Assembly: GCA_900544115.1 (NCBI GenBank)
Contig: UQTW01000004.1
Coordinates: 18,302-82,301, forward strand
DNA: 64,000 nt
DNA from: an uncultured Collinsella sp.
GTDB taxonomy: Bacteria > Actinomycetota > Coriobacteriia > Coriobacteriales > Coriobacteriaceae
Direction of reading: 5' to 3'
The position numbers were made by a program, and so were the translations under genes. Shown piece by piece: positions 1,417 through 57,160 of the stretch (position 1 is the first letter of the stretch; every line of letters begins with the position of its first letter). The notes beneath the pieces are model-generated. The model was not told where the DNA came from and did no database searches. It saw only the letters and a list, made by a program, of their open reading frames with translations.

Positions 1417-2397
1417 ATGGATCCCAACAAGCGTCCCGACGACATGGTGCGTATCACCACTCCCGAACTCGCTCAGGCGTTCATCGAAGAGCAGGTTGCT
1501 GCAATCCGTGAGCAGATCGGCAACAAGAAGGTCCTGCTGGCCCTTTCCGGCGGCGTTGACAGTTCTGTCGTCGCGGCGCTGCTGATCAAGGCCATCGGCA
1601 AGCAGCTCATCTGCGTGCACGTGAACCACGGCCTTATGCGCAAGGGCGAGAGCGAGCAGGTCGTCGACGTGTTCAAGAACCAGATGGACGCCAACCTGGT
1701 TTACGTGGACGCTACCGACCGCTTCCTCGATAAGCTCGTCGACGTCGACGAGCCCGAGGCCAAGCGCAAGATCATCGGCGCCGAGTTTATCCGCGTGTTC
1801 GAGGAGGAGGCCCGCAAGGTCGGTGACGAGGTCAGTTTCCTCGCCCAGGGCACCATCTACCCCGACATCCTGGAGTCCCAGGATGGCGTGAAGGCTCACC
1901 ACAACGTTGGCGGCCTGCCCGAGGACCTGCAGTTTGAGCTCTGCGAGCCCGTTAAGCTGCTGTACAAGGACGAGGTGCGCGTCGTGGGCCGCGAGCTCGG
2001 CCTGCCCGAGAACATGGTTGAGCGTCAGCCGTTCCCCGGTCCTGGCCTGGGCGTCCGCTGCCTTGGCGCCATCACCCGCGACCGTCTCGAGGCGCTGCGC
2101 GAGGCCGATGCCATCGTGCGCGAAGAGATCGACAAGGCCGGCCTGACCATCTGGCAGTACTTTGCCGTAGTGCCCGATTTCCGCGCTACCGGTGTGCGCG
2201 AGGGCAAGCGCGCCTACGACTGGCCCTGCATTATTCGCTGCATCAACACCGTCGACGTCATGACCGCCGAGGTGCCCGAGCTCGATTGGGCGCTGCTCAA
2301 GCGCATTACCGCTCGCGTGACCGCCGAGGTCCCCGGTATTTGCCGCGTTTGCTACGACCTCACGCCGAAGCCCGTTGGCACGGTCGAGTGGGAGTAA
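1417..2397 (+). CDS. guaA: GMP synthase, ATP-pyrophosphatase subunit. Only the GuaA C-terminal half is present; there is no glutamine amidotransferase domain.
   Basis: PP-loop LSGGVDSS, ...HHNVGGLP..., [11 protein letters not shown] and the terminal ...KPVGTVEWE align along the whole length with the GuaA C-terminal domain. The ORF begins in the interdomain region. Confidence 0.85.
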
Positions 2398-2432
2398 GCT
2401 AACTCAGCTGGTAGGCGACGAGAACTAGCAGA

Positions 2433-2461
2433 TGTGACAAAGGGACAGTCCCTTTGTCACA
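2433..2461. repeat. 29-bp perfect palindrome TGTGACAAAGGGACAGTCCCTTTGTCACA, copy 1 of 8
   Basis: Exact inverted repeat read directly from the sequence. It lies 36 bp after the guaA-subunit stop. Confidence 0.9.
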
Positions 2462-2478
2462 TCCTCGATATTATGTGA

Positions 2479-2520
2479 GGGATGGTACGCCACGCGGCGT
2501 GCCATCCCGTTCGTTATTTT
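2479..2520. terminator. Bidirectional intrinsic terminator: a GC hairpin plus T-run that forms the second half of an ~85-bp composite element
   Basis: Stem gggatggtacgcc/ggcgtgccatccc followed by gttcgttatttt. The stop of the convergent histidine-kinase gene (2514-2516) lies inside the T-run. Confidence 0.6.
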
Positions 2521-3662
2521 AATGAGCCGAGTGCGCGAGTGGGAAGGGTCACGAGCATGGTCGTTCCGCGCTCCGAGCTCTCTTCGACCTCGATGGAGCC
2601 GCCGTGGAGTGCGGCAATCTCCCAGACCAGTGCAAGCCCCAGCCCCACGCCGCCATATGCCCTGCTGCGCGATTTGTCGACGCGAAAGAAGGGCTGGAAG
2701 ATGCTCGTCTGGTATTGCTCGGGAATGCCCGGCCCCTGGTCGCGCACGCGTAGCAGCACGCGGTCGCCTTCGGCGCAGGCGTTGATTTGCACGGTCGAGT
2801 TGGGCGCGCTGTAACGTATGGCGTTTTCGGCCAAGTTGAACAGCAGCCGATAGATTAGCGTATCGCTGCCGATCGTTTGCGCGTCGCCCTCACTTGTAAG
2901 CGTGATGTCTTTTTGCTCGGCAAGGGGCGCCAGGTCCGTGAGTACTTCTTCGATCATCGGCGCCAGGTCAATCGCATCGTTGCAAGGGACACTGCGCAGC
3001 TCGCTCATCTCGAGCAGGGTCTTTGTCATGTGCGTCATCCGCTCGGTCTGCTCCTGCAGCAGCCCGAGCAGGCTCGCTGTATCGGCGTCGACGTCGGGGT
3101 GCTCGGCGCAAAACAGCTCAACCTGGGCCTGCATGAGCGCAAGTGGCGTGCGCAGCTCGTGCGCCGCATTGCCCGTAAACTGTCTTTGTGCGGAAAATCC
3201 CTCGTCAAGGCGGGCAATCATGTCGTTAAACGACGCGCTGCAGCGCCTGAGTTCAGAGGGCACGTCCTCGCTGATTTTTGTGTCGGCGAGGTTGTCGGGC
3301 CGCACGCTCTCGACTTGCGTCGCAAAGGAGCGCAACGGCTGCAACGCATGCCCGCTCACAAAGTAGGCCAGGACGCCTCCGAGCAGCGTCACCGCCGCAG
3401 TTATATACCAGCTCGTCGCGCCAAACGATTCTTGGGCGTCGTTCACGACGATGGTCAGCGCGTCGTCGAGCTCTTTGTTTGTCGGGTCAAATGAGCTGGG
3501 CGAGGCCGCCTCCACCTTGCTGTGCGCCGACGCTTCTGCACCAATCGAGTCCATGTAGCGCATGCCGGAGTAGCCAACCAGGCAATTCATAAGTACGCAG
3601 GTTGAACATATCAGCAGTGCCGTCATCAACGTGATGCGCCACTGCAGCGACAGCCGCTTCAT
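2514..3662 (-). CDS. Two-component sensor histidine kinase
   Basis: N-terminal transmembrane segments, H-box ...AHELRTPL..., HATPase motifs (DQGPGIP, GGVGLGLA). Confidence 0.85.
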   Translation of the reverse strand: MKRLSLQWRITLMTALLICSTCVLMNCLVGYSGMRYMDSIGAEASAHSKVEAASPSSFDPTNKELDDALTIVVNDAQESFGATSWYITAAVTLLGGVLAYFVSGHALQPLRSFATQVESVRPDNLADTKISEDVPSELRRCSASFNDMIARLDEGFSAQRQFTGNAAHELRTPLALMQAQVELFCAEHPDVDADTASLLGLLQEQTERMTHMTKTLLEMSELRSVPCNDAIDLAPMIEEVLTDLAPLAEQKDITLTSEGDAQTIGSDTLIYRLLFNLAENAIRYSAPNSTVQINACAEGDRVLLRVRDQGPGIPEQYQTSIFQPFFRVDKSRSRAYGGVGLGLALVWEIAALHGGSIEVEESSERGTTMLVTLPTRALGSLK

Positions 3663-4333
3663 TTGCCGTCCTCCATAACGTAGCCTTCGCCGATTCGGTT
3701 GCGGATGGGGTCGTGCCCCAACGCACCGCGCAGCTTTTTGCGCAGCGACGAGATATGCACGCGGGTCGCGTTGCTAAAGCTGTTGACGCTGCTGTCCCAT
3801 ACATGCTCGATAAGCTCTTCCTGGCTCACCGGCCGCCCCTGGTTAAGCATCAGGTATTCCAAGATGCCGGTCTCCTTGCGCGTGAGGGATAGGGTCTCGC
3901 CGCCCACGGAGGCGAGGCGCGCCTTGGTGTCAAAGCTCAACAATCCACAGACTAGAACAACGTCGTTTTGCGTAAAGCGCCTGAGCGTGAGACTGCGTAT
4001 ACGTGCCGCCAGCTCGTCAAGATGGAACGGCTTGGTGAGGTAGTCGTTGGCGCCCGCATCGAGCCCCGCTACCTTGTCGGAGACCTCGCCACGTGCCGAG
4101 AGCACAAGCACCTTGGTCTCACAATCAGTTGTCCTGAGTTGCCTGAGCACGGTCATGCCGTCGACATGGGGGAGATTGAGGTCGAGCACGACAAGATCAA
4201 AGGTCTCGACATCGAGCAGATCGAGGGCCTGCTGCCCGTCGTAGCAGCAGTCGACGCTATAGGCCAAGTTGCGCAGGCTGCGTGCGATCGCATCGCACAG
4301 CGCCCGCTCGTCCTCGATGACCAAGATGCGCAT
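3659..4333 (-). CDS. OmpR-family response regulator
   Basis: MRILVIEDERALCDAI... receiver domain with the phospho-acceptor D, and a C-terminal winged-helix. It overlaps the kinase gene by 4 bp, indicating an operon. Confidence 0.85.
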   Translation of the reverse strand: MRILVIEDERALCDAIARSLRNLAYSVDCCYDGQQALDLLDVETFDLVVLDLNLPHVDGMTVLRQLRTTDCETKVLVLSARGEVSDKVAGLDAGANDYLTKPFHLDELAARIRSLTLRRFTQNDVVLVCGLLSFDTKARLASVGGETLSLTRKETGILEYLMLNQGRPVSQEELIEHVWDSSVNSFSNATRVHISSLRKKLRGALGHDPIRNRIGEGYVMEDGK

Positions 4334-4483
4334 AACGTTCTCCTTGCATAATCATTCACGCTTAACACGGATTTTATAGTCGGTATGGTCCAATGGGTCG
4401 CGAAACGAAAGGAGTGGTCAGATTGTTCAAAGCGATTAAGCCTGTGGCGCAGGTGGCTTTGCTGATCGTTGGGGTAGCCATGG

Positions 4484-5473
4484 TTGGCTTTGGAATTATG
4501 CGCGGCGAGGCAGATGCCGTGCTGGCCAAGGCAATCAGGCTGTGCTTGGAGTGTATCGGAATTGGATAAAAGAAAAAACACTGCATCGCATCTTTTAGCG
4601 CGATTTCGTGGATTGATTCAGGCGGCGGCGACGCTTGCGACCAATATTCACCTGCCTAACTTTGCCAAGGGCGGCATCTACCAGGGAGCGGGCAAAGCCG
4701 TCTGCGTGCCGGGCCTCAACTGCTACTCGTGTCCAGCGGCCTCGGGTGCGTGCCCCATCGGGTCGTTTCAGTCGGTGGTGGGCTCGTCTAAGTTTAGCTT
4801 CTCGTATTACGTCACCGGAACGCTCATTCTGATCGGCGTGCTGCTGGGACGTTTTGTATGCGGCTTTTTGTGCCCGTTTGGATGGCTACAAGAGCTTTTG
4901 CATAAGATTCCCAGCAAAAAGCTCTCCACGAAAAAGCTCAAGCCGCTCACGTACATCAAGTATGCCGTGCTGCTGTTTGCCGTGGTGCTGCTGCCCGTCT
5001 TGGTGGTTAACGATGTGGGTATGGGCGACCCGTTCTTTTGCAAGTACATCTGCCCGCAAGGTGTGCTCGAGGGCGCGATTCCGCTGTCCATCATGAACGT
5101 GGGAATCCGCTCCGCGCTGGGAAAGCTCTTTTCCTGGAAGCTCGCGATCCTCATTGTGGTTGCGGTGCTGAGCGTGCTGTTCTATCGCCCCTTCTGCAAA
5201 TGGATTTGCCCCCTCGGCGCATTTTATGCGCTCATGAACAAGGTGTCTTTGCTGGGGATCCAGGTTGACCAGTGCAAATGCGTCTCGTGCGGCAAGTGCG
5301 CCAAGGTGTGTCAAATGGACGTGGACGTTACGCGTACGCCCGACCATGCCGAGTGCATTCGTTGCGGCAAATGCGTGGGCGCGTGCCCCGTCGATGCTAT
5401 TAGCTTTCGCTATGGGCTGGGTGTGACGGGCGACAAACCCGCGCAGTCCACGCAAGCCTGCGAAAACAAATAG
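4484..5473 (+). CDS. NapH/MauN-like polyferredoxin membrane protein with 4Fe-4S clusters
   Basis: Repeated CxxCxxCxxxCP motifs (CKYICPQG, CKWICPLG, CVSCGKCAKVC, CIRCGKCVGACP) plus transmembrane segments. The track start is a TTG, so the true start is probably further downstream. Confidence 0.6.
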   Translation: MALELCAARQMPCWPRQSGCAWSVSELDKRKNTASHLLARFRGLIQAAATLATNIHLPNFAKGGIYQGAGKAVCVPGLNCYSCPAASGACPIGSFQSVVGSSKFSFSYYVTGTLILIGVLLGRFVCGFLCPFGWLQELLHKIPSKKLSTKKLKPLTYIKYAVLLFAVVLLPVLVVNDVGMGDPFFCKYICPQGVLEGAIPLSIMNVGIRSALGKLFSWKLAILIVVAVLSVLFYRPFCKWICPLGAFYALMNKVSLLGIQVDQCKCVSCGKCAKVCQMDVDVTRTPDHAECIRCGKCVGACPVDAISFRYGLGVTGDKPAQSTQACENK

Positions 5474-8389: not shown

Positions 8390-8402
8390 CGCGCATTGGA
8401 AT

Positions 8403-8431
8403 GTGACAAAGTGACAGCCTCTTTGTCGCAT
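8403..8431. repeat. Degenerate copy of the 29-bp palindrome (tgtgacaaagtgacagcctctttgtcgca), copy 2
   Basis: Read directly from the sequence. It lies 14 bp after the cdr stop and carries the same downstream extension as copy 1. Confidence 0.8.
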
Positions 8432-11600: not shown

Positions 11601-11865
11601 CAACGTGGCCAACGTGTTCAATGCCGAAACCTTTATCGAGGGTCTCATTGCCGGCGTCTTTGCCGTTACCGTCGTGGTGCTCGTAAGCTTTCCTGTTAAT
11701 GCTTGGGCGCTTGCTGCCAAGCAGGTCCCCAACCTGATGAGCCTGCCCGTGCAGGATGCGTTGATACTCATTGCGATATCGGTGCTGCTGACGGTCGTCG
11801 CCGGCCTACTGCCGGCCCGCAGCGCATCTAAGAAAGACCCCGTAGAAGCCCTACGCTCCGAATAA
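8602..11865 (+). CDS. Fused ABC transporter ATPase and FtsX-type permease with MacB-like architecture
   Basis: N-terminal Walker [10 protein letters not shown], signature LSGGQMQRV, and Walker B. There is one transmembrane segment, a large extracytoplasmic domain, and a C-terminal FtsX-like 3-TM bundle. Confidence 0.8.
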
Positions 11866-11894
11866 TGTGACAAAGGGACAGCCCCTTTGTCACA
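11866..11894. repeat. 29-bp palindrome copy 3 (tgtgacaaagggacagcccctttgtcaca)
   Basis: It directly abuts the TAA stop of the ABC gene (11863-11865). Confidence 0.9.
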
Positions 11895-11908
11895 TTTCTC
11901 TCCTGCGC

Positions 11909-13042: not shown

Positions 13043-13250
13043 GGCGGGTCCTTGGTGTCGTGGCGGTCGTTGTGGCGCGATGCCGTCATATGTGACTCAG
13101 TATAGAGAATCCCGCCATCGATGAGCGCATGGTCATACGGCAAAAGTGCCACGGCAGCCCTGGTTTAGAGCGGCTGCTCCTGTGCCCACGCGATGATGCC
13201 GCCCGATACGTATGTGTGCCAAAATAAACAGCCGAATGATGATTTGCAAA

Positions 13251-13279
13251 TGTGACAAAGGGACAGTCCCTTTGTCACA
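13251..13279. repeat. 29-bp palindrome copy 4 (exact)
   Basis: It sits in the 5' region 16 bp upstream of dus and is followed by the conserved gatgtgag motif. Confidence 0.9.
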
Positions 13280-13294
13280 TTGATGTGAGAATGG

Positions 13295-14254: not shown

Positions 14255-14385
14255 ATGATCCCTTGGGGACGGAGAAGAACGGATCGCCTGTGCCGGACCC
14301 ATGCAAAAAACTGTACGCCAGCATCCAAGGATGTCGAATAATATCGTTTTTGGATGCTGACGTACATGTTTGGTTCGGCAGGGGA

Positions 14386-14652
14386 CTAGGCAATCATTGC
14401 ATCGAGTGTAATGAGTTCCCTGAGTCGCTCCGTGCGCGTTTGCCCATGGCGCTTTGCCTTTGCGTCAAATGCTTCAAGAACCGATTCGCCCACACGTGCC
14501 GATAAAACAACGCTTGGTTCATCGGAAATCGGCGGCCTTCCCAACTTGACGGTGTGGCCCTTCGGCCACTCATCTTTTTCGTATGCCGCTGCGGCTTTTT
14601 CTAGCTCACCGGGAGCAAACCCCATCATCTTTTCGAGCTGTTTAGCGTCCAT
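14386..14652 (-). CDS. BrnA-like ribbon-helix-helix antitoxin
   Basis: MDAKQLEKMM...VVLSARVGESVLEAFDAKAKRHGQTRTERLRELI resembles the BrnA C-terminus. It starts 8 bp downstream of the toxin gene, and the track ORF is extended 5' beyond this start. Confidence 0.55.
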   Translation of the reverse strand: MDAKQLEKMMGFAPGELEKAAAAYEKDEWPKGHTVKLGRPPISDEPSVVLSARVGESVLEAFDAKAKRHGQTRTERLRELITLDAMIA

Positions 14653-14660
14653 AGCGCCTC

Positions 14661-14927
14661 CTATCGATCGATTCCGATTTCCCTGAGCACCTTGCGCGTA
14701 GGAGGGACAAGGGCGTGGTAAATGATGTAACCATCTCGGTCGGGGCAACATCGAGCAATGAGCTCCATGAGGCGGTTTTTTCCATCAAGTCCAACGAGAA
14801 CGTAATCGATGCCTCCATTTTCAAGATCACGCCTAAACCATGCGAAAGCGGAGTTCCAAGCGCAGGTAATATCCGTCTCTGTCAGCCCATGTTTGAGGGC
14901 ATGGGGGTGGATTGCGATGAGCTCCAT
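14661..14927 (-). CDS. BrnT-like (DUF497) ribonuclease toxin
   Basis: ...HALKHGLTETDI...LVGLDGKNRLMELIARCCPDRDGYIIYHALVPPTRK is BrnT/RelE-like. Toxin-first gene order matches brnTA. Confidence 0.55.
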   Translation of the reverse strand: MELIAIHPHALKHGLTETDITCAWNSAFAWFRRDLENGGIDYVLVGLDGKNRLMELIARCCPDRDGYIIYHALVPPTRKVLREIGIDR

Positions 14928-14984
14928 AGGGACCTCTCTTTATGTATACAGTTTTGTAGACAAAAATACAAGCAGTTAATATGG

Positions 14985-16271
14985 TTAAGCAGCCTGTTTT
15001 GGTTGGACTGTTGGTTGCATAGTTGGCACGAGAGGCTCTACCGCTTCTTCATTTCTTAGTTCGGTATGCGAGCGGCCGTTGAACTCCCAGAGGGGAGTGT
15101 TCTCATAGATTATCGAGATGAGTTTGGAGACCTTGTTTATCTTCGCTTGTTCATAAAAATCGGGCCGTACGACGATCAATAGAAATTCGGCATCTTCGTT
15201 AATTTGTTGCACTGTCGGCATGCCGTTGAGACCAATAGAGCGCAAGAGCTTTGCCATAATGAAATCGAATTCGTCCTCTCTTGCGTGAAGGCTCGCGGCA
15301 CTCAGCTTGGAATCCTTCAAGATATCCAGTTTGAGATTGTTAAGAAACCGTGTGTAGGTGGCATATCCGCAGACAACGTCCTCATAATCGAGTTTTTTGA
15401 TTGGATGCTGTTTATGAGCAGCGAATATGGCCGCCCTCCTGCTCTGAACACGTCGCTCGCGTAACGAACGCATTTCCTCGGTGTACTCGCTATGGCGTTT
15501 ATATTTTCGATAAGAATATCCGTAGTCGTCGTAGTAATAAGGGTTGTTTTCGACTGTGTCATCAAGTTCCGGCGTTATGAGGTACAGCTCTCCGTCTCTG
15601 GATAACATACAGGGGTTGTCGATGCGCCCCGACTCGTCTCTGATTTTCCAAATGGTTTCATTTACTTCGAATATCGAGACTGGTTTGGGAGCGCAAGAAT
15701 TGTAAAGCTCAACAAACTTCTCAAGCGAGATGATTCCGCAAGCATCTGTATAAGCGCGTGCAAAGCGCCAAACTTCCTGGTTCGCTATGAGCTCGCGGAA
15801 TTCCCTGTTGCTTGGAGCATCTTGTGGGCTTTGGTATCTGGCGTGAAGCGCGACGCGTGATGAGGACCATCTGTTGTCGGCCGCGACGTTCATGAGCTCC
15901 AGACGCAGGTACTCGTTTGTAATGCGAGCGAGTGACTCATAGTGAGTTAGGCCAAGCTCTGATCTAGGTGGCACGTCTTTGGGAACGGCGCGAGCGAACT
16001 TAATGCAGCGTGTGAGATAGGATTGTCCTAAGCGGGGACCATAATGCTTGTGTAGATGGCCGCCGACAGGGGAGAGCAATCCTTTGAGGTTGGTAACGGG
16101 GTATCCGGCGGTCTCTTGTTCGAGGCGGCGCCCGATGAGCAATGCCCCCTCAAGCGAAGTTTCATGATCGATACCCTTTTGATTAAGGCTCTTGGCTTCA
16201 ACGATTCCGCTGATATCTGAGCAGGCGCTCGAAACGATGTCGGACGTAAAGGTTGGAATCTTTTTTGCCAT
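14985..16271 (-). CDS. Hypothetical protein, 428 aa, with no recognisable domain
   Basis: Long intact ORF in a locally AT-richer segment with no overlapping alternative frame. Confidence 0.5.
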   Translation of the reverse strand: MAKKIPTFTSDIVSSACSDISGIVEAKSLNQKGIDHETSLEGALLIGRRLEQETAGYPVTNLKGLLSPVGGHLHKHYGPRLGQSYLTRCIKFARAVPKDVPPRSELGLTHYESLARITNEYLRLELMNVAADNRWSSSRVALHARYQSPQDAPSNREFRELIANQEVWRFARAYTDACGIISLEKFVELYNSCAPKPVSIFEVNETIWKIRDESGRIDNPCMLSRDGELYLITPELDDTVENNPYYYDDYGYSYRKYKRHSEYTEEMRSLRERRVQSRRAAIFAAHKQHPIKKLDYEDVVCGYATYTRFLNNLKLDILKDSKLSAASLHAREDEFDFIMAKLLRSIGLNGMPTVQQINEDAEFLLIVVRPDFYEQAKINKVSKLISIIYENTPLWEFNGRSHTELRNEEAVEPLVPTMQPTVQPKQAA

Positions 16272-16556
16272 AACGATGCACTCCTGTGTGACTCACGGAT
16301 AACGGAAACGTTTGGTTGTGAGTGCCGTTCTTTGATGGCGACGGCGAACAGGAGCGCAGCCTGTCTGAGATGGGCGAGTGCGGTAACCACCGATCTTACT
16401 TACCGAGCTCGCTCCAGCGTGTCATTGGGGACCTCCGCAGGAGCTCTCGACTCGTCTCATGCCTTGAGGCGAGTATAGCATAAAAGCAAACGTATGTTCT
16501 ATAAATTTGAGAAGCTGAATTCCTACCTACTCATTTAAGTACGTCCCCAATGAGTG

Positions 16557-16802
16557 CTAGAGGAGGTTTTTCTGTGTCCAGGTGATGATGTCGCTCGACT
16601 CGTAGAGCGGTTTGCCGTCAATGAACAGGCAGGGAACCTGGCGTTTTCCGCCGACGGCGATGAGCGTCTGCTCGGCATCGGGGTCAGTCGAGATATTGCG
16701 TTCGGGAATGGTCACGCCGTTATCGGCCAAAAAGCGCTTGACCTTTATGCAATACGGGCAGCCAGTCATAACGTAGAGCGCGAGTTCATGATCAGTAGCC
16801 AT
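16557..16802 (-). CDS. Glutaredoxin-like protein (NrdH/Grx family)
   Basis: MATDHELALYVMTGCPYCIKVKRFL... has the CPYC active site in a thioredoxin fold. The track ORF is a long 5' artefactual extension. Confidence 0.7.
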   Translation of the reverse strand: MATDHELALYVMTGCPYCIKVKRFLADNGVTIPERNISTDPDAEQTLIAVGGKRQVPCLFIDGKPLYESSDIITWTQKNLL

Positions 16803-20503: not shown

Positions 20504-23341
20504 CTATAGCGAAACAGTTCCGTTTTTCTTGATGCGGGCGAGTATGTTTTTGAGCTTGTTAAAGTCGAGCGGTTTGGGCAGATGGGCGTTCATACCGGCA
20601 TCGTGTGCCGCCTTGGCGTCCTCGTTGAAGGCGTTGGCAGTGAGCGCGATGATGGGGATGTCGGCTGCATCGGCCTTTTCGCTCAGACGAATCGCGCGGG
20701 TTGCCTCGTAGCCATCCATGCCCGGCATCATGATGTCCATCAGGATCGCATCGAAGCTGCCGGCGGGACGACTAACGTATAGGTCGACTGCTTTGTTGCC
20801 GTCGGCGGCGCGCGTTACGACGATGCCTTCGCTTTCGAGTAGAGCCTGGGCAATTTCGGCATTGAGCTCGTTGTCTTCTGCCAAAAGGACGTTCATGCCG
20901 GCAAGCGAGCAACTGTATGTCTGCTTGGACGCACGTTCTTTTGCCTGAGGGTTCTTGTCGATATCGAGCGGTATCTGGACGTTGAACGTGCTTCCCGCGC
21001 CAACCTCACTCGAAATCTCAATCGTGCCGCCCATCATATCGATGAGCGATTTGACGATAGACATGCCAATGCCGGTTCCTTGGAACTTGCTACGCGCATC
21101 GTCGCCTTCCTGGGCAAACGGCTCGTAAATGTGCGTCAAAAACTCGGGCGTCATACCAATGCCGGTATCCGAGACGCTAAAGCAAAACACGGCGTGCTCG
21201 TCGTCGACCGGTTTGATGGTCGATGAGAACGTGACGGTGCCTCCGTGCTTGTTGTACTTGATGCTGTTGTCGAGCAGGTTGACAAGGATCTGCCGAATAT
21301 GGGTGGGGCTGCCGATCATATATTGGTCGACAGCGTAGGGCTCGCTGGTATCGAGCATGGTTATGCCACGGTCTGATGCGCGGAGCTTGCACAGTACGAG
21401 CGCATTGTCGCACAGCTCTTTAAGGTTGAATGATTCGTGCTCGAGCGTCACTTTGCGCTCCTCGATCCTGCCCATCTCGAGGATGTCGTTAATCAGTGAC
21501 AGCAGGTGATTGGCGGCAACGCGCGCCTTGGCGCGGCTTTCGCGGGCGACCTGCATGTCGCCTTCTCTCAATTCCTCAATTTCGATAAGACCCAGGATGC
21601 CGTTGAGCGGCGTGCGGATGTCGTGGCTCATGCGCGTGAGGAAAGCGGTTTTGGCGGCGTTGGCGGCATCGGCTTTCTGCCGTTCCTCCTGTGCGCGGTA
21701 AAGCGACCAGACAAGGATGACGATGCCGGTGAGCAAAATGCAGATGACGACTGCCGCAATGACGATGCGGTTGCGGTAGAGAAGTCGGAACGCATCCGAT
21801 TCTTGCGCCGAGTACGATGTGGGGAAATAGCTGTTTGCAGAGAGCGATTCACCTGCATTGACGATGCCCTTATTGATGATTCCCAGCAGCTCGGGCTTGC
21901 CGCGCGAAATTAAACACGATAGTTGCGCCGTGTTGGTGAGTTCCTGTGTTTCGAAATCCTCGATGTCGTAGATGTCGCGGAGAGTTTCCAGGCGCGTGCT
22001 GGGGACAATGATGCAACGTGCCTTCCCCTCATTGAGGGCTTTGAGCACCTCGCCGTCATTCGAATACTCGGTTACCGTTGCGTTCGGAAAGAGACTTTCG
22101 AGCTCAAAACGGTTAACGATTGTGCTCTTTGTACAAGCGATGTTCTTAAGGTCGCTGTTCAGGTTTTTGCCACTGTGAATGGCGGTCAGCGAAACCGTTC
22201 CCATCGAGTTTGACTGGATGACCCCTGTCTGCTCGGCGAGCCAGTAGTCGCGAAACAACGGCAGGGCGACATCGATGGTTCCGTTGGAAAGGGCTTTGAT
22301 CATTTGCTTGTTGTTCGAGAGTGCGATTGTTTTGACCGTAATGTCAAACTTGTCGTGCAACGTCGTTGCAAGCGAGGCGAGCGACCCTTCCATCTCGCCG
22401 TCGTCATTTTGCGTACAGTAGGGAAGTTGGTTTTTAAGATAGCCGAGCGTGATGGTATTGCCGTTTTCTTTGAGCCAGGTGGTCTCGGTGCCGGTGAGCG
22501 ATGACGAGCCACTGTTTTGGGTCGAGTAACTCGTTTTGACTTCCTCGTTATAGCGCGGGTTATCGCGGGCGATGGTCGTCATGGCGGCGTTGATGTCGTT
22601 CATCAGGTCAGGGCGGCTTTTGGGAACGGCAAAATAGTAGTCGCTCGAGCCTACGTAGAACATGGGTGACGCATCGGGCGACGAAATGGTGTCGTTCATG
22701 ATGACGGCGTCGACCTCGCCGTCTGCAAGCGCCTCAAAGAGGGCGCTGCCGGTGTCGATTTCTTTATAGGTGCAGGTAACGTCTTCGTTGGCGAGCCACT
22801 GCTGGCCGACGATAGTTTGCATAACGCCAGAGTTGCAGCCGATGGTGAGGCCTTGGAGCGCCTGGGGGTCACCCTTGGCCAGATCGTCGCGGTCGGGCCT
22901 GGCGTAGATGTAGTAGCGCTCGGTGCCCTCGGGGTTCGAGGAAAAGAGCAGCTTCTGCTCGCGTTCTGCCGAATACGAGATGTTGGGCATGAGGTCGATT
23001 TCGCCTGCTTCGAGCATGTCCATAAGCTCGGAGAAGGTGCCGCTAACGTATTCGTATTGCCAGCCCTTTGTGTAATACGAGAGGGTCTGGAGGTACTCGT
23101 AGCCCCATCCCGAAAGTCGCTCGCCCGGCATGCCTTCCTGGAAGCCTTTGTTGTTGACGAGCCAGCCAACGCGGACTGTCTTGACCTGCTGGTCGGAGTC
23201 GGCGGCAAAGGCGGGGGCGGGCATGACGGCGCTCAGTATGGCGAGCGCGGCAAGCGCGACGGCCAGGGTGCGATATAGAGCCAAGCGAAGGACGGCGGAA
23301 GGTTTCACATGAAATCCTATCGAGTTGAGACAATTTCGCAT
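20504..23341 (-). CDS. Hybrid sensor histidine kinase/response regulator with two periplasmic solute-binding (SBP_bac_3-like) domains
   Basis: Signal/TM, two SBP-like modules, a TM segment, HisKA (SHDIRTPLN), HATPase (DTGIGM, GTGIGMS), and a C-terminal REC (VLLAEDNELN...D). Confidence 0.85.
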   Translation of the reverse strand: MRNCLNSIGFHVKPSAVLRLALYRTLAVALAALAILSAVMPAPAFAADSDQQVKTVRVGWLVNNKGFQEGMPGERLSGWGYEYLQTLSYYTKGWQYEYVSGTFSELMDMLEAGEIDLMPNISYSAEREQKLLFSSNPEGTERYYIYARPDRDDLAKGDPQALQGLTIGCNSGVMQTIVGQQWLANEDVTCTYKEIDTGSALFEALADGEVDAVIMNDTISSPDASPMFYVGSSDYYFAVPKSRPDLMNDINAAMTTIARDNPRYNEEVKTSYSTQNSGSSSLTGTETTWLKENGNTITLGYLKNQLPYCTQNDDGEMEGSLASLATTLHDKFDITVKTIALSNNKQMIKALSNGTIDVALPLFRDYWLAEQTGVIQSNSMGTVSLTAIHSGKNLNSDLKNIACTKSTIVNRFELESLFPNATVTEYSNDGEVLKALNEGKARCIIVPSTRLETLRDIYDIEDFETQELTNTAQLSCLISRGKPELLGIINKGIVNAGESLSANSYFPTSYSAQESDAFRLLYRNRIVIAAVVICILLTGIVILVWSLYRAQEERQKADAANAAKTAFLTRMSHDIRTPLNGILGLIEIEELREGDMQVARESRAKARVAANHLLSLINDILEMGRIEERKVTLEHESFNLKELCDNALVLCKLRASDRGITMLDTSEPYAVDQYMIGSPTHIRQILVNLLDNSIKYNKHGGTVTFSSTIKPVDDEHAVFCFSVSDTGIGMTPEFLTHIYEPFAQEGDDARSKFQGTGIGMSIVKSLIDMMGGTIEISSEVGAGSTFNVQIPLDIDKNPQAKERASKQTYSCSLAGMNVLLAEDNELNAEIAQALLESEGIVVTRAADGNKAVDLYVSRPAGSFDAILMDIMMPGMDGYEATRAIRLSEKADAADIPIIALTANAFNEDAKAAHDAGMNAHLPKPLDFNKLKNILARIKKNGTVSL

Positions 23342-23394
23342 AAGGATACCAGCTCAGCCTGCCCATTCAGCCGCCGCACCGCTAAACGGTCACT

Positions 23395-23454
23395 CCCGGC
23401 AGTTGGGGACAGTCCCTTTCTGCCGGCAGAAAGGGAACGTCCCCAACTGCCGGG
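23395..23454. repeat. 60-bp near-perfect palindrome in a divergent promoter region
   Basis: cccggcagttggggacagtccctttctgccgg | ccggcagaaagggaacgtccccaactgccggg. It shares the core gggacagtcccttt with the 29-bp family. Confidence 0.85.
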
Positions 23455-23506
23455 TGTGGGACAATAACGAGCGAATGTGATTGGGCGTCTGGGAAAAGGG
23501 GTCGCG

Positions 23507-23932
23507 ATGAACAAGTTGAGGACGCTTGCCGACGTGTTGCGCCAGGCTGGCTTTGCACGCATCACGGGCCTGTTTCTCGTCTTCTATCTGCTGTGCTCGA
23601 CAGCCGTCTGGCTGTCCGAGCCCACGACCCTTACGTTTGGCGACGGCCTCTGGTTTAGCTTTGAGACCGTATCGACCATCGGCTTTGGCGATATCCCGGC
23701 CGAGACGCCGGTTGCCCGCGCTATCACTGTCGTTTTGAGCGTCATCAGCATCTTCTACATCGCCATGCTCACGGGCGTGGCGGTGAACTACTGCAATACG
23801 CTCATCAAGATGCGCCAAAAGGACACCATGGCGCGCTTTATGGACGATCTTGAGCATTTGGAAGAGCTCGATCGTGACGAGCTTGCCGACCTATCGCGCC
23901 GTGTGCGTGAATATCGCCGACGCCAACGCTAG
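23507..23932 (+). CDS. Two-TM potassium channel protein
   Basis: Selectivity filter TVSTIGFGD between two transmembrane helices. ATG at 23507 has the RBS aaagggg upstream; the track uses an upstream GTG. Confidence 0.75.
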   Translation: MNKLRTLADVLRQAGFARITGLFLVFYLLCSTAVWLSEPTTLTFGDGLWFSFETVSTIGFGDIPAETPVARAITVVLSVISIFYIAMLTGVAVNYCNTLIKMRQKDTMARFMDDLEHLEELDRDELADLSRRVREYRRRQR

Positions 23933-28200: not shown

Positions 28201-28513
28201 GTTTATCTCGATCCGTAACATCTGAAGTCAATTTTGGCGGCTAGATGTTACAGATCGAGACAGCCTCGATCTTCCTGCTGGTTTATCTCAATCTGTAACA
28301 CTTAGGCCTGATTTTGATGGCTAGATGTTACAGATTGAGACATTGGCTGCCCGCCTGCCAGTTTGTCTCGATCTGTAACAGGTAGAGGCTCAAAACCCGT
28401 CTTTCTGTTACAGATTGAGACGGAGATTGAGACGGTGTTGGTCTTCCCAACCGTTTATCTCGATCTGTAACATCTGGAGCCGATTTTGGCGGCTAGATGT
28501 TACAGATTGAGAC
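28201..28513. repeat. Tandem array of four 61-bp hairpin units at 80-bp period. CRISPR-like layout but not a CRISPR.
   Basis: Units at 28201-28261, 28281-28341, 28361-28421 and 28453-28513. Each is GTTTATCTCGATCTGTAACA-(25 nt)-TGTTACAGATTGAGAC with 16-bp inverted arms. Spacers are 19, 19 and 31 bp. Confidence 0.85.
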
Positions 28514-36100: not shown

Positions 36101-36158
36101 CTAGTCATTGGGGACGTTCTTAAACGACTAATCATTTAAGAACGTCCCCAATGACTAG
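36101..36158. repeat. 58-bp perfect palindrome with 24-bp arms, in the MATE/rlmA divergent promoter region
   Basis: CTAGTCATTGGGGACGTTCTTAAA-cgactaatca-TTTAAGAACGTCCCCAATGACTAG, read directly from the sequence. Confidence 0.9.
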
Positions 36159-37033: not shown

Positions 37034-37071
37034 CCTGCCAAAAAGGGACAGGTTTATTTTGGCAGGTTTTA
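37034..37071 (+). terminator. Intrinsic terminator after rlmA
   Basis: cctgccaaaaagggacaggtttattttggcagg followed by ttttat. Confidence 0.55.
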
Positions 37072-39917: not shown

Positions 39918-41921
39918 ATGTCGAAGCAAGCGGTCGTTGGAATCTTGGCGCATGTCGATGCCGGCAAGACCACGCTGGCCGAGGCCATGTTGTTCAACGC
40001 GGGTCGCATTCGCAAGCGCGGCCGCGTGGACGATGGCGATTCGCATCTGGACACTAACACGATCGAGCGCGAGCGCGGCATTACGATCTTCTCGTCGCAG
40101 GCCGTGCTCGACCATGGCGATACCCACGTCATGCTCGTTGATGCGCCGGGGCATGTCGATTTTTCTGCCGAGGCGGAGCGCACATTGCGCGCACTCGACT
40201 ACGCGATTTTGGTTGTGGGCGCCAACGACGGCGTACAAGGGCACACCGAAACCCTGTGGCGCCTGCTTGCGCGCTATGACATTCCGACGTTCATCTATAT
40301 CAACAAAATCGATTTGGAGAATCCCGGCCGCGATGTTTTGCTGGCACAACTTGGGCAACGTCTTTCCGAAGGTTGCCTGGATGCCAACGAACTGTTGGCG
40401 GGCGGCGCCGTTCAGGAGGACGCTGCTGCGTTGGACGAGGCGGCGCTCGAGGAGTTTCTTGAGGCGGGCGAACTTTCTGTTGCAACGCTGTCACGCATGG
40501 TTGCCGAGCGCAAGCTCTTTCCCTGCTTTGCCGGCTCGGCGCTCAAGGACCAAGGCGTGGACGAGCTGCTGGACGGCATATGCGCGCTGATGCGTGAACG
40601 GGCATGGCTTCCGGAGTTTGCCGCGCGCGTCTATCGTGTCAGCCGCGGGGATCGTGGCGAGCGCTTGGCTTGGGTTAAAGTGACCGGCGGCACGCTGCGT
40701 GCCAAGCAGATGATTAACGGACGTTCCGGCGCCGAGGCATGGGAGCAAAAGATCGACCAGGTGCGCATCTATAACGGCGAGAAATACGAGCTTGCCCAGG
40801 AAGTTGCCGCTGGCGGCATCTGCACCGTGACGGGTCTTGCGCACGTTCGCCCGGGTGATGCCCTGGGCGCGGAGCCCGCGGGCGATACGCCCGTCATTGC
40901 GCCGGTCCTCACCTATACGGTGCTTCCGGGCGAACACGATGTCCACGCGGTGTTCAAAGCGCTGACTGAGTTGGCGGACGAAGATCCCATGCTCGGCGTA
41001 AGCTGGAATACGCATCTTGAACAAATACATCTGCAGCTCATGGGAGCGGTGCAACTCGAGGTCGTGCAGCGGGTGTTGGCCGATCGTTTTGGCCTTGCGG
41101 TCGAGTTTGAGCCCGGCGGCATCCTCTATAAGGAGACCATTTCGCAGCCGGTCGAGGGCGTGGGTCACTTTGAGCCACTGCGCCACTATGCCGAGGTGCA
41201 TCTGCGCCTGGAGCCGTTGCCGGCGGGCTCGGGCGTACAGTTTGGCACCGTGACCTCGACCGACGAGCTCGATCTTAACTGGCAGCGTCTGGCGCTCACC
41301 AACGCCATGGAGCGCGATCATCTGGGCGTGCTGACCGGCTCGCCCATCACCGATGTGTGCATTACGCTCACAGGTGGCCGCGCGCATGCCAAACACACCG
41401 AGGGCGGCGATTTTCGCCAGGCCACGTATCGCGCGATTCGCCAGGGGCTCATGCGGGCACGTGAGGCCGGCGCGGCGGTGCTGTTGGAGCCGTGGTACCA
41501 CTTTGAGCTCGAGGTGCCGGGGGAGTGCGTGGGCCGGGCGCTCTCGGATGCCACGCGCATGGGTGCCGAGTACGAGCCGCCGACGATGGCGGGCGACCGA
41601 GCGAAGCTTGTGGGTCGCGTGCCGGCATCCGAGGTGCAGGATTACGCGCTGGAGGTGGCTGCCTACACGAGTGGTCGCGGGCATCTGTACCTGGAGTTTG
41701 CCGGCTATGCGCCTTGTCATGATGCCGAGCGCGTCATCGAGGCGGTGGCCTATGAGCCCGAGGCCGATCTGCCCAACACGCCCGACTCGGTCTTTTGCTC
41801 TCACGGCGCCGGTTACACGGTCAAATGGTACGACGTACCCGCCGCGGCACACGTAAAGATCGATCCCGCCGCCTTCCGTCCCTGGCGAGCAGCAGACGCT
41901 GAGTTTTTCGGCCACATGTGA
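39918..41921 (+). CDS. Ribosomal-protection-type translational GTPase (TetM/TetO/TetW/OtrA family)
   Basis: AVVGILAHVDAGKTTLAEAML, DAPGHVDF, NKIDL. The domain IV/V region ...LPAGSGVQFGTVTS... aligns with Tet(W)/Tet(M) and is divergent from canonical EF-G. RBS aagaggagag precedes the ATG at 39918. Confidence 0.65.
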   Translation: MSKQAVVGILAHVDAGKTTLAEAMLFNAGRIRKRGRVDDGDSHLDTNTIERERGITIFSSQAVLDHGDTHVMLVDAPGHVDFSAEAERTLRALDYAILVVGANDGVQGHTETLWRLLARYDIPTFIYINKIDLENPGRDVLLAQLGQRLSEGCLDANELLAGGAVQEDAAALDEAALEEFLEAGELSVATLSRMVAERKLFPCFAGSALKDQGVDELLDGICALMRERAWLPEFAARVYRVSRGDRGERLAWVKVTGGTLRAKQMINGRSGAEAWEQKIDQVRIYNGEKYELAQEVAAGGICTVTGLAHVRPGDALGAEPAGDTPVIAPVLTYTVLPGEHDVHAVFKALTELADEDPMLGVSWNTHLEQIHLQLMGAVQLEVVQRVLADRFGLAVEFEPGGILYKETISQPVEGVGHFEPLRHYAEVHLRLEPLPAGSGVQFGTVTSTDELDLNWQRLALTNAMERDHLGVLTGSPITDVCITLTGGRAHAKHTEGGDFRQATYRAIRQGLMRAREAGAAVLLEPWYHFELEVPGECVGRALSDATRMGAEYEPPTMAGDRAKLVGRVPASEVQDYALEVAAYTSGRGHLYLEFAGYAPCHDAERVIEAVAYEPEADLPNTPDSVFCSHGAGYTVKWYDVPAAAHVKIDPAAFRPWRAADAEFFGHM

Positions 41922-41945
41922 CAAGGGGACAGCCCCTTTGTCACC
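41917..41945. repeat. 29-bp palindrome copy 5 (tgtgacaaggggacagcccctttgtcacc)
   Basis: The TGA stop of the preceding gene (41919-41921) is the TGA inside the palindrome. Confidence 0.85.
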
Positions 41946-42014
41946 CGCTGTTGGTATAACTCGGTGTAAGTTGGTATAACTATAGGCAGGGTTTGCCAAT
42001 CCGAGGAGGCCGAC

Positions 42015-43133
42015 ATGAATCCAAATCCCTTTAAGCCAACGGCAGGCAAGCGGCCTCCGATACTCATCGGTCGCGAGTCGGTCATCGAAGATTTCGAGGA
42101 AGGGCTCGATAACGGCGCCGGAGCGCCGGGTAGGCTCATGCTCATTACGGGAAACCGCGGCTGCGGCAAGACGGTTCTCCTGCGGGAGCTGCAACGTCTA
42201 GCCAATGAGCGTGGATGGGCGGTTGTCTCCGATTCCGCTTCGCTTGGCCTATGCGACCGCTTGGCCGATGCGCTTCGCTCGAATAGGCCGGTTGTGACGT
42301 CAATGGAGTTCGGTCCGTCGTTTGGCCGGATGTCGGTCGAGGCGGCGCGAGCAAAGGGCGAGACGTTGCGAGGGCTGGTCAACGAGCGCCTCAAGAAACT
42401 CGGGCCGGGAAAGGGCTTGCTGTTTGCGATTGATGAGGCCCAATCTGCGTCTATCGAGGAACTGGCGGCGCTGGCCGTTCTCTATCAGCAAGTGCTCGGA
42501 GATCAAGATGCTACAGGCTTGTCCGATAGCGACCAGCGCGGTCTTGCGCTGGTGTTCGCCGGCTTACCCAGTATGGTTGATGACTTGCTCGAAGAGCCGA
42601 GCGTGACGTTTTTGCGGCGTGCTCAGCAGCGTACGCTGGGGGCGATTTCTTTGCCCAAAGTGCGCGATTCGTATATCCAGACGGTCAAAGACGCTGGTCT
42701 TTACGTTGATGCGGAGACGGCGGACCTTGCGGCGCGCAAGAGCATGGGGCATCCCTATATGGTTCAGCTGGTGGGCTATTACATGTGGCGGTCTGCTGTC
42801 CGGCGTGGCTCGCAGGTCATTGAAGAGCGCGATGTTGAGGCTGGGCACGCGGATGCCGTCTCCGAGTTCTACGAAGCGGTTGACGCGCCCCTGTATTACG
42901 GGCTGCGCAGTCCACAGCGCCTATTTATCGAGGCCATGGCAGTTGACGGGGGCAAGCCGACGCGCATGGCGGACATCATTGAGCGCTGCGACCGCACCCA
43001 AAGCTGGGCGAGTAAATATCGCGCAAGCCTGATTCGCGAGCGCGTCATCGAGGCTGCCGGATACGGCCTCGTCCGGTTTACCGTGCCCATGCTGGGCGAG
43101 TACATCCGCGAACGCGTTTTATGGCACGAGTAA
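42015..43133 (+). CDS. AAA+ ATPase (Arch_ATPase/AAA_16-like) with a C-terminal winged-helix, paralog A
   Basis: NPF...IGRE motif, Walker A GNRGCGKT, Walker B LLFAIDEAQ. It shares VTFLRRAQQ, LVGY and a C-terminal region with 46271-47371. Confidence 0.65.
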   Translation: MNPNPFKPTAGKRPPILIGRESVIEDFEEGLDNGAGAPGRLMLITGNRGCGKTVLLRELQRLANERGWAVVSDSASLGLCDRLADALRSNRPVVTSMEFGPSFGRMSVEAARAKGETLRGLVNERLKKLGPGKGLLFAIDEAQSASIEELAALAVLYQQVLGDQDATGLSDSDQRGLALVFAGLPSMVDDLLEEPSVTFLRRAQQRTLGAISLPKVRDSYIQTVKDAGLYVDAETADLAARKSMGHPYMVQLVGYYMWRSAVRRGSQVIEERDVEAGHADAVSEFYEAVDAPLYYGLRSPQRLFIEAMAVDGGKPTRMADIIERCDRTQSWASKYRASLIRERVIEAAGYGLVRFTVPMLGEYIRERVLWHE

Positions 43134-43161
43134 TGTGAAGAGGGACGGTCCCTTTGTCACA
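43134..43161. repeat. Palindrome copy 6, degenerate (tgtgaagagggacggtccctttgtcaca)
   Basis: It abuts the TAA stop at 43131-43133 and is followed by gatagatgtgagg, just upstream of the GNAT start. Confidence 0.8.
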
Positions 43162-43183
43162 TCGATAGATGTGAGGTCAAAAC

Positions 43184-46230: not shown

Positions 46231-46234
46231 GCGA

Positions 46235-46263
46235 TGTGACAAAGGGACTGCCCCTTTGTCACA
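46235..46263. repeat. 29-bp palindrome copy 7 (tgtgacaaagggactgcccctttgtcaca)
   Basis: It lies 4 bp after the UvrA-like stop. Confidence 0.9.
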
Positions 46264-46270
46264 TTGACTT

Positions 46271-47371: not shown

Positions 47372-47491
47372 AAAGCTCTCCTTTCACAGCGCCGTTTAAC
47401 TTCATTTTACTTTAGTTAATTCTGATTAAAAGTGAGGGCTTTTTATCTAGAGCATCAATTAGGCGTGTGCGCCATCGGCGCGGCGCTTGAA

Positions 47492-47520
47492 TGTGACAAA
47501 GGGACAGTTCCTTTGTCACA
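47492..47520. repeat. 29-bp palindrome copy 8 (tgtgacaaagggacagttcctttgtcaca)
   Basis: The trmL stop codon (reverse complement of 47516-47518) is the TGA inside the palindrome's right arm. Confidence 0.9.
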
Positions 47521-48115
47521 TTCCCGGAAAGCCTGTTTGGCGCAGGGCTTCGTAGAGGACGATGGCGGCGCTGTTGGAGAGGTTGAGGGCGCTGATGCGG
47601 TAGTCGTCCGGGTTGACGAAGTTGCCGCAGATGTCCTTTTGAAGGATAGCCTCGTGGCTGTCCTCGGTATGTCCGAGCGATTCCTCGTGGGCTTCCCAAG
47701 CCTCGGCGTTATCGAGCGAGTCGCAATCGCGCAGCATAGGGATGCGCTCGCAGCGCTCGGGCGCCGCGGCGAGCAGTGGCTCGGGAATGCCCGAGCTCTC
47801 GCTGCCAAAGACCAAGTAGTCGCCGTCGTGGTAGGTACTCTGCGCATAGGTGCGGCGTGCCTTTTTGGTCAGCAGATGTAGGCGCTCGTCGGCAGGGGAG
47901 AGACCGTTGCGTGCAAGGAAATCCTCCCAGCCGGCATAGGTCGTCACGTCCAAGTTTTGCCAGTAGCCCAGGCCGGCGCGACGTACCGTTTTGTCGTCGA
48001 GCGAGAAGCCCAGCGGCTCCACCAGATGCAGGCGGGCGCCGGTGACCACGCAGGTACGGCCGATATTGCCCGTATTGGCCGGAATCTCGGGCGCATACAG
48101 CACAATGTTGAACAT
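47516..48115 (-). CDS. trmL: tRNA (cytidine/uridine34-2'-O)-methyltransferase TrmL (SpoU family) with an internal acidic insertion
   Basis: MFNIVLYAPEIPANTGNIGRTCVVTGARLHLVEPLGF and the C-terminal ...LNLSNSAAIVLYEALRQ align with E. coli TrmL. The start coordinate is accurate to about 1 nt, and the track ORF is extended 5'. Confidence 0.8.
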   Translation of the reverse strand: MFNIVLYAPEIPANTGNIGRTCVVTGARLHLVEPLGFSLDDKTVRRAGLGYWQNLDVTTYAGWEDFLARNGLSPADERLHLLTKKARRTYAQSTYHDGDYLVFGSESSGIPEPLLAAAPERCERIPMLRDCDSLDNAEAWEAHEESLGHTEDSHEAILQKDICGNFVNPDDYRISALNLSNSAAIVLYEALRQTGFPGM

Positions 48116-56986: not shown

Positions 56987-57008
56987 GGCAAGCTGCCGTG
57001 GACTCGGC

Positions 57009-57116
57009 GGAAAGCGCGTCCCAGAATGAGCGTTCAGACTGGGATGCGGTTTCCCGTTAAGCCTCTATATGGAAAGCGCATCCCAGAATGGACGTCCAAA
57101 CTGGGATGCGCTTTCC
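57009..57116. repeat. Two tandem homologous 46-nt hairpins between convergent genes
   Basis: ggaaagcgcgtcccag-(14)-ctgggatgcggtttcc at 57009-57054 and ggaaagcgcatcccag-(14)-ctgggatgcgctttcc at 57071-57116. There is no T-run, so they are REP-like rather than a classic terminator. Confidence 0.7.
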
Positions 57117-57160
57117 GCTGTCGAAGGTATGAGGCTGCGGAGCAGCTGCTCGGCATAGGC

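Follow-up and report, generated by a model that had tools for sequence, protein, structure and literature searches.

Repetitive extragenic palindromic (REP) sequences carry a conserved 5′ GTAG-type tetranucleotide next to a hairpin. The bacterial interspersed mosaic elements (BIMEs) of Escherichia coli and the Neisseria intergenic mosaic elements and dRS3 arrays (NIMEs/dRS3) are mosaic clusters of intergenic repeats. In Pseudomonas and Enterobacteria, REPs occur as doublets that form hairpins, known as REPINs (PMC3116915). REPs can also be the targets of insertion sequences (ISs): IS621, a member of the IS110 family, targets the REPs of E. coli (PMC11208160, PMC1525189), and ISPpu10 targets those of P. 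putida (bioRxiv 10.64898/2026.03.19.712850). Here, we describe a 60-bp palindrome from a 64,000-nt stretch of DNA (the window; contig UQTW01000004.1) of an uncultured Collinsella of the aerofaciens group. The palindrome lies between two divergent genes, one for a hybrid histidine kinase (minus strand) and the other for a small K+ channel (plus strand). With a probability of about 0.78, we regard it as a REP/REPIN/BIME-like repeat doublet belonging to an interspersed, extragenic superfamily, which has been remodelled from strain to strain and which also serves as a landing pad for an IS, rather than as a conserved operator. A literature search found no description of palindromic repeats of Collinsella.

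The palindrome (cccggcagttggggacagtccctttctgcc followed directly by ggcagaaagggaacgtccccaactgccggg) has two 30-nt arms without a spacer, in which 28 of 30 positions are complementary. The two mismatches (AG vs AC) are at the centres of the arms, and in the repeat search weaker pairing widened the palindrome to 23391–23458 (34-nt arms, 91% complementarity). Because the single-stranded DNA (ssDNA) fold reaches −35.1 kcal/mol, compared with −13.2 ± 2.2 kcal/mol for shuffled sequences (z = −10.1), and none of 200 shuffles folded as well, a chance origin of the palindrome is ruled out. Each arm belongs to one of two inverted copies of a unit (B1 and B2) of the general form CCGGCAG-(TTGGGGAC..TCCCTTT)-CTGCCGG, and the two units overlap by CCGG, which creates the perfect palindrome CTGCCGGCAG at the centre. 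The two arm mismatches coincide with the two positions following GGGGAC that are variable throughout the family. The B2 unit of the window is identical to a unit at another locus (L099).

These units follow a plan that is shared by a whole superfamily of repeats: a 7-nt stem, 2 nt, (A/G)GGGAC, 9 nt and a complementary 7-nt stem, i.e., 31 nt in all, with the inner conserved motif (T/A)(T/A)(A/G)GGGAC-NN-TC(C/T)(C/T)T. The outer stems differ from class to class yet stay self-complementary. This was surveyed in distinct 31-mers with (A/G)GGGAC at a fixed offset, pooled from the window and all fetched loci: at least six of the seven outer-stem positions were complementary in 93 of 522 distinct 31-mers, vs 2 of 572 in a control in which the 3′ stem was slid by 6 nt. 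There are at least eight stem classes (CCGGCAG, CTAGTCA, ATGTGAC, TGGTGCA, CCACTCA/GTACTCA, ATCTGAC, CCCCACA, TGATCCG and CTGCCAA). Units are joined head to head via a shared 4-nt palindrome, which is CCGG in the 60-bp palindrome and CTAG in a 58-bp class, giving doublets that fold as one long hairpin as well as longer mosaic arrays. The 58-bp element, of class C, comprises two 31-nt units with CTAGTCA/TGACTAG stems and has the same 27-nt period as the 60-bp palindrome; the overlap by CTAG is seen in other copies of class C (L003, L007). Class C units are stable solely as doublets, whereas A and B units fold singly (B1, B2 and A units alone: −10.2 to −14.3 kcal/mol as ssDNA, z = −4.5 to −7.6).

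The window holds units at 13 sites, none of which is within a credible open reading frame (ORF), in a stretch that is ~84% coding according to a gene map based on third-position G+C; the single unit that does fall inside an ORF is in one with low third-position G+C and no Pfam match. Class A is present in eight copies, one degenerate copy counted in. The sites are in convergent, tandem and divergent spacers, and several units begin at a stop codon or a few bases from one. Within the window, GGGACNGTCCC (allowing one mismatch) occurs nine times, vs 2.0 expected (0/100 shuffles).

The palindrome had been noticed in an earlier reading of the letters of the window without database searches (the sequence-only reading), much of which stands. 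Its near-perfect 60-bp palindrome is real and its sequence was given correctly, except that the central CCGG was written twice, a transcription slip that yields 64 letters for 60 bases. As it stated, the core GGGACAGTCCCTTT recurs unchanged at the centre of the repeat ATGTGACAAAGGGACAGTCCCTTTGTCACAT, and the TTGGGGAC/GTCCCCAA module also makes the arms of the 58-bp palindrome at 36101–36158. Its view that three palindrome classes are built from related modules can be extended to the stem classes listed above, all on one 31-nt plan, its 29/31-bp and 58-bp palindromes being classes within this superfamily. Within the 64-kb window, its core motif is over-represented (the nine occurrences of GGGACNGTCCC). 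The coordinates of all these features, and of the flanking genes, are collected in Table 1.

Table 1. Positions in the window of the palindrome, its units, other members of the repeat superfamily, and the flanking genes.
Feature	Position	Strand	Remarks
Near-perfect palindrome, inverted doublet of two 31-nt units	23395..23454	.	Symmetry centre between 23424 and 23425
Unit B1, CCGGCAG-TTGGGGACAGTCCCTTT-CTGCCGG	23396..23426	+	Lone hairpin, −10.6 kcal/mol as ssDNA
Unit B2	23423..23453	-	Minus strand reads CCGGCAGTTGGGGACGTTCCCTTTCTGCCGG (CCGGCAG-TTGGGGACGTTCCCTTT-CTGCCGG)
Family motif TTGGGGAC-AG-TCCCTTT	23403..23419	+	Core of B1
Inverted family motif TTGGGGAC-GT-TCCCTTT	23430..23446	-	Core of B2
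CTGCCGGCAG, perfect 10-bp palindrome at the unit junction (23420-23429), plus A at 23430	23420..23430	.	IS110-family target elsewhere
Class C 58-bp palindrome, CTAGTCA stems	36101..36158	.	Inverted doublet, divergent intergenic region
Class A 31-bp palindrome ATGTGACAAAGGGACAGTCCCTTTGTCACAT	2432..2462	.	Repeat search
Further class A copies	8401-8431 (degenerate), 11865-11895, 13250-13280, 41916-41946, 43133-43162, 46234-46264, 47491-47521		
Unit with TGATCC(C/G) stems	14256..14286	+	Class C units at this site in other strains
Other stem classes	16527-16557, 37035-37065	-, +	31-mer survey of the window
Hybrid histidine kinase	20504..23308	-	934 aa from GTG 23308; signal peptide, SBP_bac_3, HisKA, HATPase_c, Response_reg
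Small K+ channel, Ion_trans_2	23507..23932	+	141 aa; identical protein indexed in 7298 assembly-collection blocks
TGGGACAAT, possible extended −10 element of the channel gene	23457..23465	+	Suggested by its letters; not detected by the promoter scan

In several respects, the Collinsella repeats resemble the REP/REPIN system: the units are short imperfect palindromes confined to extragenic DNA; inverted doublets make one long hairpin, with singlets, doublets and higher clusters coexisting; and several sequence classes are found in one genome, in which compensatory changes keep the hairpin. They differ from that system in their host, an actinobacterium (Coriobacteriia), in the 4-nt overlap of the units, which have no spacer between them, and in the seemingly low copy number of the B class; in addition, no REP-associated tyrosine transposase (RAYT) was found, in a search of low power. 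In place of the GTAG-type tetranucleotide of REPs, the first four bases are CCGG in B units and ATGT in A units, and only some class C alleles begin with GTAG (not CTAG). The likeness to BIMEs and NIMEs lies in units of alternating orientation that are mixed with other short motifs, stand after or between genes and vary between strains; however, the sequences are unrelated, the Collinsella units are joined by shared 4-bp palindromes with a strict 27-nt period, and, in contrast to BIMEs, there was no evidence here of binding by gyrase, IHF or a comparable host protein.

A scan of one representative genome per species for CCGGCAGNNNGGGNNNNNCCCNNNCTGCCGG gave at least 120 loci. About 105 of the matches listed were from Collinsella (C. 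aerofaciens and many other species) and the remaining matches listed were unrelated G+C-rich hairpins from other phyla; in the collections searched, the superfamily was seen solely in Collinsella. Among the matches listed, there were 107 Collinsella B units, which formed 12 groups (loci) defined by their flanks, and 71 of the 107 were at the kinase/channel locus. At the other loci, B units are combined with class C and ‘GGGGACACTC’ modules into mosaic arrays, which typically follow stop codons or occupy spacers between convergent genes, and chains of the form ...GGGAC.GTCCC-3 nt-CTGCCGGCAG-3 nt-GGGAC.GTCCC... were found. The units are not phage-borne: in viral contigs, the A and B patterns had no matches and the C pattern had one.

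At the kinase/channel site, a repeat cluster was present across all Collinsella contigs examined, and its content was strongly strain-variable. This was followed in 57 human-gut metagenome contigs, which were selected by the conserved channel-side flank alone, so that the sample is unbiased with respect to the palindrome. The alleles were a single unit (3/57), the doublet (15/57, plus 2 partial), the doublet with a 15-bp duplication (5/57), the class C 58-bp palindrome alone (12/57, plus 2 partial), mosaics of B and C units (8/57), a different upstream context with degenerate units (9/57), and a cluster interrupted by an IS110-family element (1/57). Even among eight contigs with an identical channel protein, the content of the site ranged from a single unit through doublets to longer mosaics, with replacement of the B doublet by a class C palindrome as a further variant.

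The structure of the alleles suggests how they could have arisen. The one-unit and two-unit alleles are exactly 27 bp apart, and the 27 bp are bounded by direct CTGCCGG repeats, which is the signature expected of slippage; slippage between these repeats would give rise to the one-unit and two-unit alleles and to the 15-bp duplication. The arms of the doublets covary at two pairs (G-C to C-G, and T-A to C-G), with a covariation score of 0.086, vs 0.063 for shuffles (0/500 reached the observed score) and at most 0.051 for slid controls. As the sequences are related, the support from this covariation is modest. The allele of the window is the most symmetric, with 25 of 27 counted pairs vs ~22 in most alleles, and three substitutions, each of which restores pairing, set its B2 arm apart from that of the majority. 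This symmetry could be explained either by template switching inside the palindrome or by gene conversion from one locus to another, and the same processes acting between units would account for the replacement of one class by another. Insertion of an IS110-type element would be a third route of remodelling.

The allele series also bears on an operator, which the sequence-only reading had suggested as one possibility in the form of a common DNA-binding factor that recognises GGGAC-N-GTCCC. Such a factor would be dimeric or tetrameric (e.g. a partner of the hybrid kinase) and would control the divergent promoters of kinase and channel. The divergent arrangement is as that reading described it, as is the distance of about 50 bp to the channel gene (53 bp to ATG 23507). 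Its 54 bp to the kinase gene holds for ATG 23341, at which the longest ORF begins, but public gene calls begin at GTG 23308, with AGGA upstream of the GTG, which makes the distance 87 bp; the first ATG is probably not the true start. An operator would suit a palindrome placed in a divergent promoter region at 53 bp and 87 bp from the two starts, and also the covarying arms, the over-representation of GGGACNGTCCC (9 vs 2 expected) and the unit-bearing cluster at this site in every Collinsella contig examined. However, strains with an identical channel carry one unit, two units, another class or mosaics, so that the spacing shifts by 27 to >80 bp, and there are at least seven structurally different allele classes, including full replacement by another unit class. 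Members of the superfamily are common between convergent genes and right after stop codons, where there is no promoter, and ~13 sites per 64 kb are too many for a specific regulon. Nor is there a gene for a DNA-binding response regulator among the genes neighbouring the kinase, which encode a PNPOx-like protein, an aminotransferase, TrmO and a TipAS-type helix-turn-helix protein. The common binding factor is thus not supported, given the promoter-less sites, the variety of alleles and the lack of an adjacent regulator, and we consider an operator very unlikely. From these observations, we infer that the kinase/channel cluster is long-resident repeat DNA and not a dedicated operator.

From the position of the palindrome, the sequence-only reading also suggested a regulatory impact, and an influence on the channel promoter is plausible. 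The right arm of the palindrome abuts a conserved TGTGGGACAAT, which could be an extended −10 element, and TGGGACAAT is kept in all alleles, directly to the right of the repeat cluster. On the kinase side there is TGGTATCCT, which resembles an extended −10 element (complement of 23343–23351, minus strand). In a promoter and terminator scan of 23200–23600, promoter-like sites were absent and the palindrome was not called as a terminator. As the right arm coincides with the expected −35 region of the channel promoter and its distance to the −10-like element depends on the allele, the alleles may shift expression as a side effect.

Folded as RNA, the palindrome reaches −59 kcal/mol (z = −9.1), and class A units stand right after stop codons, a position in which a hairpin could protect a transcript or terminate it. 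Both would be expected of a role in RNA, i.e., as a hairpin in the 5′ untranslated region, an attenuator, a terminator, or a small RNA, for the transcript of the channel or the kinase. However, the strongest candidates for −10-like elements, which are TGGGACAAT on the channel side and TGGTATCCT on the kinase side, appear to lie between the palindrome and each gene, and because they sit on the gene side of it and the genes are divergent, the 60-bp palindrome is probably not transcribed. In addition, it has no T-tract, the variety of alleles speaks against a specific RNA structure, and the whole window gave no Rfam match at the gathering score; at permissive thresholds, the palindrome matched only generic miRNA-precursor hairpins, far under the cut-offs, which is meaningless. 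A role in RNA is thus extremely unlikely. An intrinsic terminator was considered as a candidate and rejected, in view of the divergent flanking genes, the missing T-tract and the terminator scan, which called none.

The second possibility raised by the sequence-only reading was a family of miniature inverted-repeat transposable elements (MITEs). Part of this fits, as the repeats are interspersed, intergenic, polymorphic and mosaic. Like MITEs, the Collinsella units are small, non-coding inverted repeats that occupy many intergenic sites and vary between strains; the doublets are two inverted ~30-nt arms with nothing between them, as in a minimal MITE; copies are present at many loci, and one class can replace another at a single site. 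At 16418–16557, moreover, a TCATTGGGGAC...GTCCCCAATGA pair surrounds ~110 bp. A classical MITE, however, would be a deletion derivative of an IS with terminal inverted repeats, moved by a DDE transposase with target-site duplication, and this is where the likeness ends. Direct repeats are absent on either side of the A, B and C copies, and the sequences bordering the 60-bp palindrome (CACTC / GTGTG) lengthen it instead; neither the kinase/channel site nor the 14256 site was seen empty in the contigs examined; and no transposase gene bounded by ends of the CTAGTCATTGGGGAC... or CCGGCAGTTGGGGAC... type was found in ~1.5 Mb. Just one IS was found in association with the units; its ends are unrelated to theirs, and the units are its target. 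The occurrence of single units, and of chains with a 27-nt period, is easier to reconcile with a unit-based repeat than with a two-ended element. As no target-site duplications, empty sites or parent IS with matching ends were found in the DNA searched, REP/REPIN/BIME-like is a better label than MITE, and a classical MITE is unlikely. A ~1.1-kb segment between inverted class C units was considered as a transposase gene and rejected, since it encodes an ordinary HAD hydrolase with repeat arrays in both spacers; among the genes examined, no other had unit arrays on its two sides.

A Collinsella element of the IS110/IS1111 type inserts preferentially at the unit junction CTGCCGGCA(C/G)A. In several contigs, the sequence following CTGCCGGCA(C/G)A runs on as GACGATATGAGCAGGACAT..., and the next ORF matches DEDD_Tnp_IS110. 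A complete copy of the element (L204, 2377–3927; ~1.55 kb) encodes the domains PF01548 and PF02371. Its inverted repeats (ATATGAGCAGGACAT) are subterminal, its left end is short and its right end comprises 318 nt of non-coding DNA; we take this layout of subterminal repeats and a long right end to be IS1111-like. Seven of eight independent left junctions read ...(C/G)(C/T)GCCGGCA(C/G)A followed by GACGATATGAGCAGGACAT, inside family units, and the right junctions in L150 and L204 read ...CTCATAT followed by TAAAAGGAACGTCCCC. The kinase/channel site is among these junctions, in five representative-genome contigs and one metagenome contig, and junctions are also present in L025, L032, L035, L038, L056, L058, L071, L095, L150, L205, L206 and L208. 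A search of the window with the end sequence of the IS gave no match, and the target site (23420–23431) is intact there.

The pairing of this IS with the repeats is reminiscent of IS621 and ISPpu10, in that an element of the DEDD type (PF01548, PF02371) uses one defined position of a unit at many independent loci. As in IS110/IS1111 elements, there are subterminal inverted repeats, a long non-coding right end and a 10-nt segment (CCTTTTCTGC) that is complementary to the target. Unlike IS621 and ISPpu10, the Collinsella element has a different host and a different target sequence, and its bridge RNA is only a candidate. The right end holds CCCTTTTCTGCG, and the 10-nt core of this stretch (CCTTTTCTGC) can base-pair with target sequence spanning the insertion point; by a rough estimate, the probability of this by chance is ~0.01. 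Thus, CCTTTTCTGC/CCCTTTTCTGCG could be the guide segment of a bridge RNA, although it is a lead only: the fold of the right end is not significant (z = −1.0), and an Rfam search of the right end gave no match.

Two further observations concern the IS. The one copy outside a unit (L207, ~2100–3400) has an identical ~40-bp sequence (AAATGCCGGTACGCTTGCAGAATCGTACCTGTTCCGATTACA) on both sides of the element, which could reflect a tandem arrangement, a circle-junction structure or an artefact of long-read assembly. Some copies of the element have in turn been hit by other ISs, namely an IS3-family element (rve) in L058 (3108–3839) and an IS21-family element (rve and IstB) in L205/L208 (~2900–5070), which points to nested insertion of ISs in Collinsella.

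Several observations weigh against the reading of the palindrome as a repeat doublet of this kind. No empty site was found among the 57 metagenome contigs or among ~70 representative-genome contigs with the kinase/channel site, and neither a target-site duplication nor a transposition intermediate was seen at the units. We infer movement of units between loci from the multi-locus distribution and from class replacement. At the class A and class C sites checked, length was constant among closely related strains (those in which the neighbouring proteins are identical), because the strains compared are too close. A tblastn search (E ≤ 0.1) of ~1.5 Mb of redundant Collinsella DNA for Y1/RAYT transposases, with IS200 TnpA and E. 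coli RAYT as queries, gave no match, its power being very low. The unit copy counts refer to the loci listed, and the B class is seemingly low-copy, with ~1–2 exact-pattern matches per genome. Because the B class appears to be low-copy and 71 of the 107 B units among the matches listed are at one locus, retention of the kinase/channel copy is exceptionally strong, and it may have a local function.

Possibly, the repeat doublet belongs to a REPIN-like replicator that does without a RAYT, in which the units would be recognised by the conserved apical (A/G)GGGAC while the stems covary, some other enzyme or process would spread them, an RNA-guided IS110/IS1111 element would be coupled to the units as its landing pads, and turnover of the cluster would generate natural promoter alleles of the K+ channel and the kinase among strains of the human gut. 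This more specific proposal is speculative, and we regard it as rather improbable.

Collinsella is a very common genus of the human gut, with many species-level groups and fragmented assemblies. The repeat superfamily and the IS that targets it explain some of the breaks in these assemblies, several contigs ending exactly at the palindrome, and the repeat alleles can be used as markers for strain typing. The most useful by-product of the analysis is the targeting of the units by an IS110-type element, as it provides a natural repeat/IS110-family pair outside the Proteobacteria for work on target choice by bridge RNAs. The allele series is also a caution against assigning the palindrome an operator role for the kinase or channel genes; if the alleles alter promoter strength, they would be a source of differences in expression between strains.

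Some minor features of the repeats and of the window were also observed. The central base of class A is A on the plus strand in seven of the eight window copies, a possible orientation bias, and at 41916 and 11865 the ATGTGAC of class A supplies or abuts the stop codon of the upstream gene. Elsewhere, two class A copies were found in ~1 Mb of other Collinsella loci, mostly covering the same genomic region. Family units (14256 and 16527) and an inverted TCATTGGGGAC pair (16422/16543) delimit a low-G+C island at 14290–16600 (47–55%, vs 59% for the window). The ORFs of this island encode a ribbon-helix-helix protein (14386–14751, minus strand) and a product of 428 aa without a Pfam match (14985–16271, minus strand), and the content of this site differs in other strains. 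A tRNA search of the window found none. A separate family of ~56-nt inverted repeats (TCTCAATCTGTAACA...TGTTACAGATTGAGA) is present in several copies at 28241–28513, in the divergent spacer upstream of the RF3 gene, and in strain L102 this spacer is reduced to 108 bp. Finally, a duplicated palindromic repeat with 48-nt arms (GGAAAGCGCATCCCAGAATGGAC followed by GTCCAAACTGGGATGCGCTTTCC) and a GGAC/GTCC centre lies at 57007–57118, between convergent genes.

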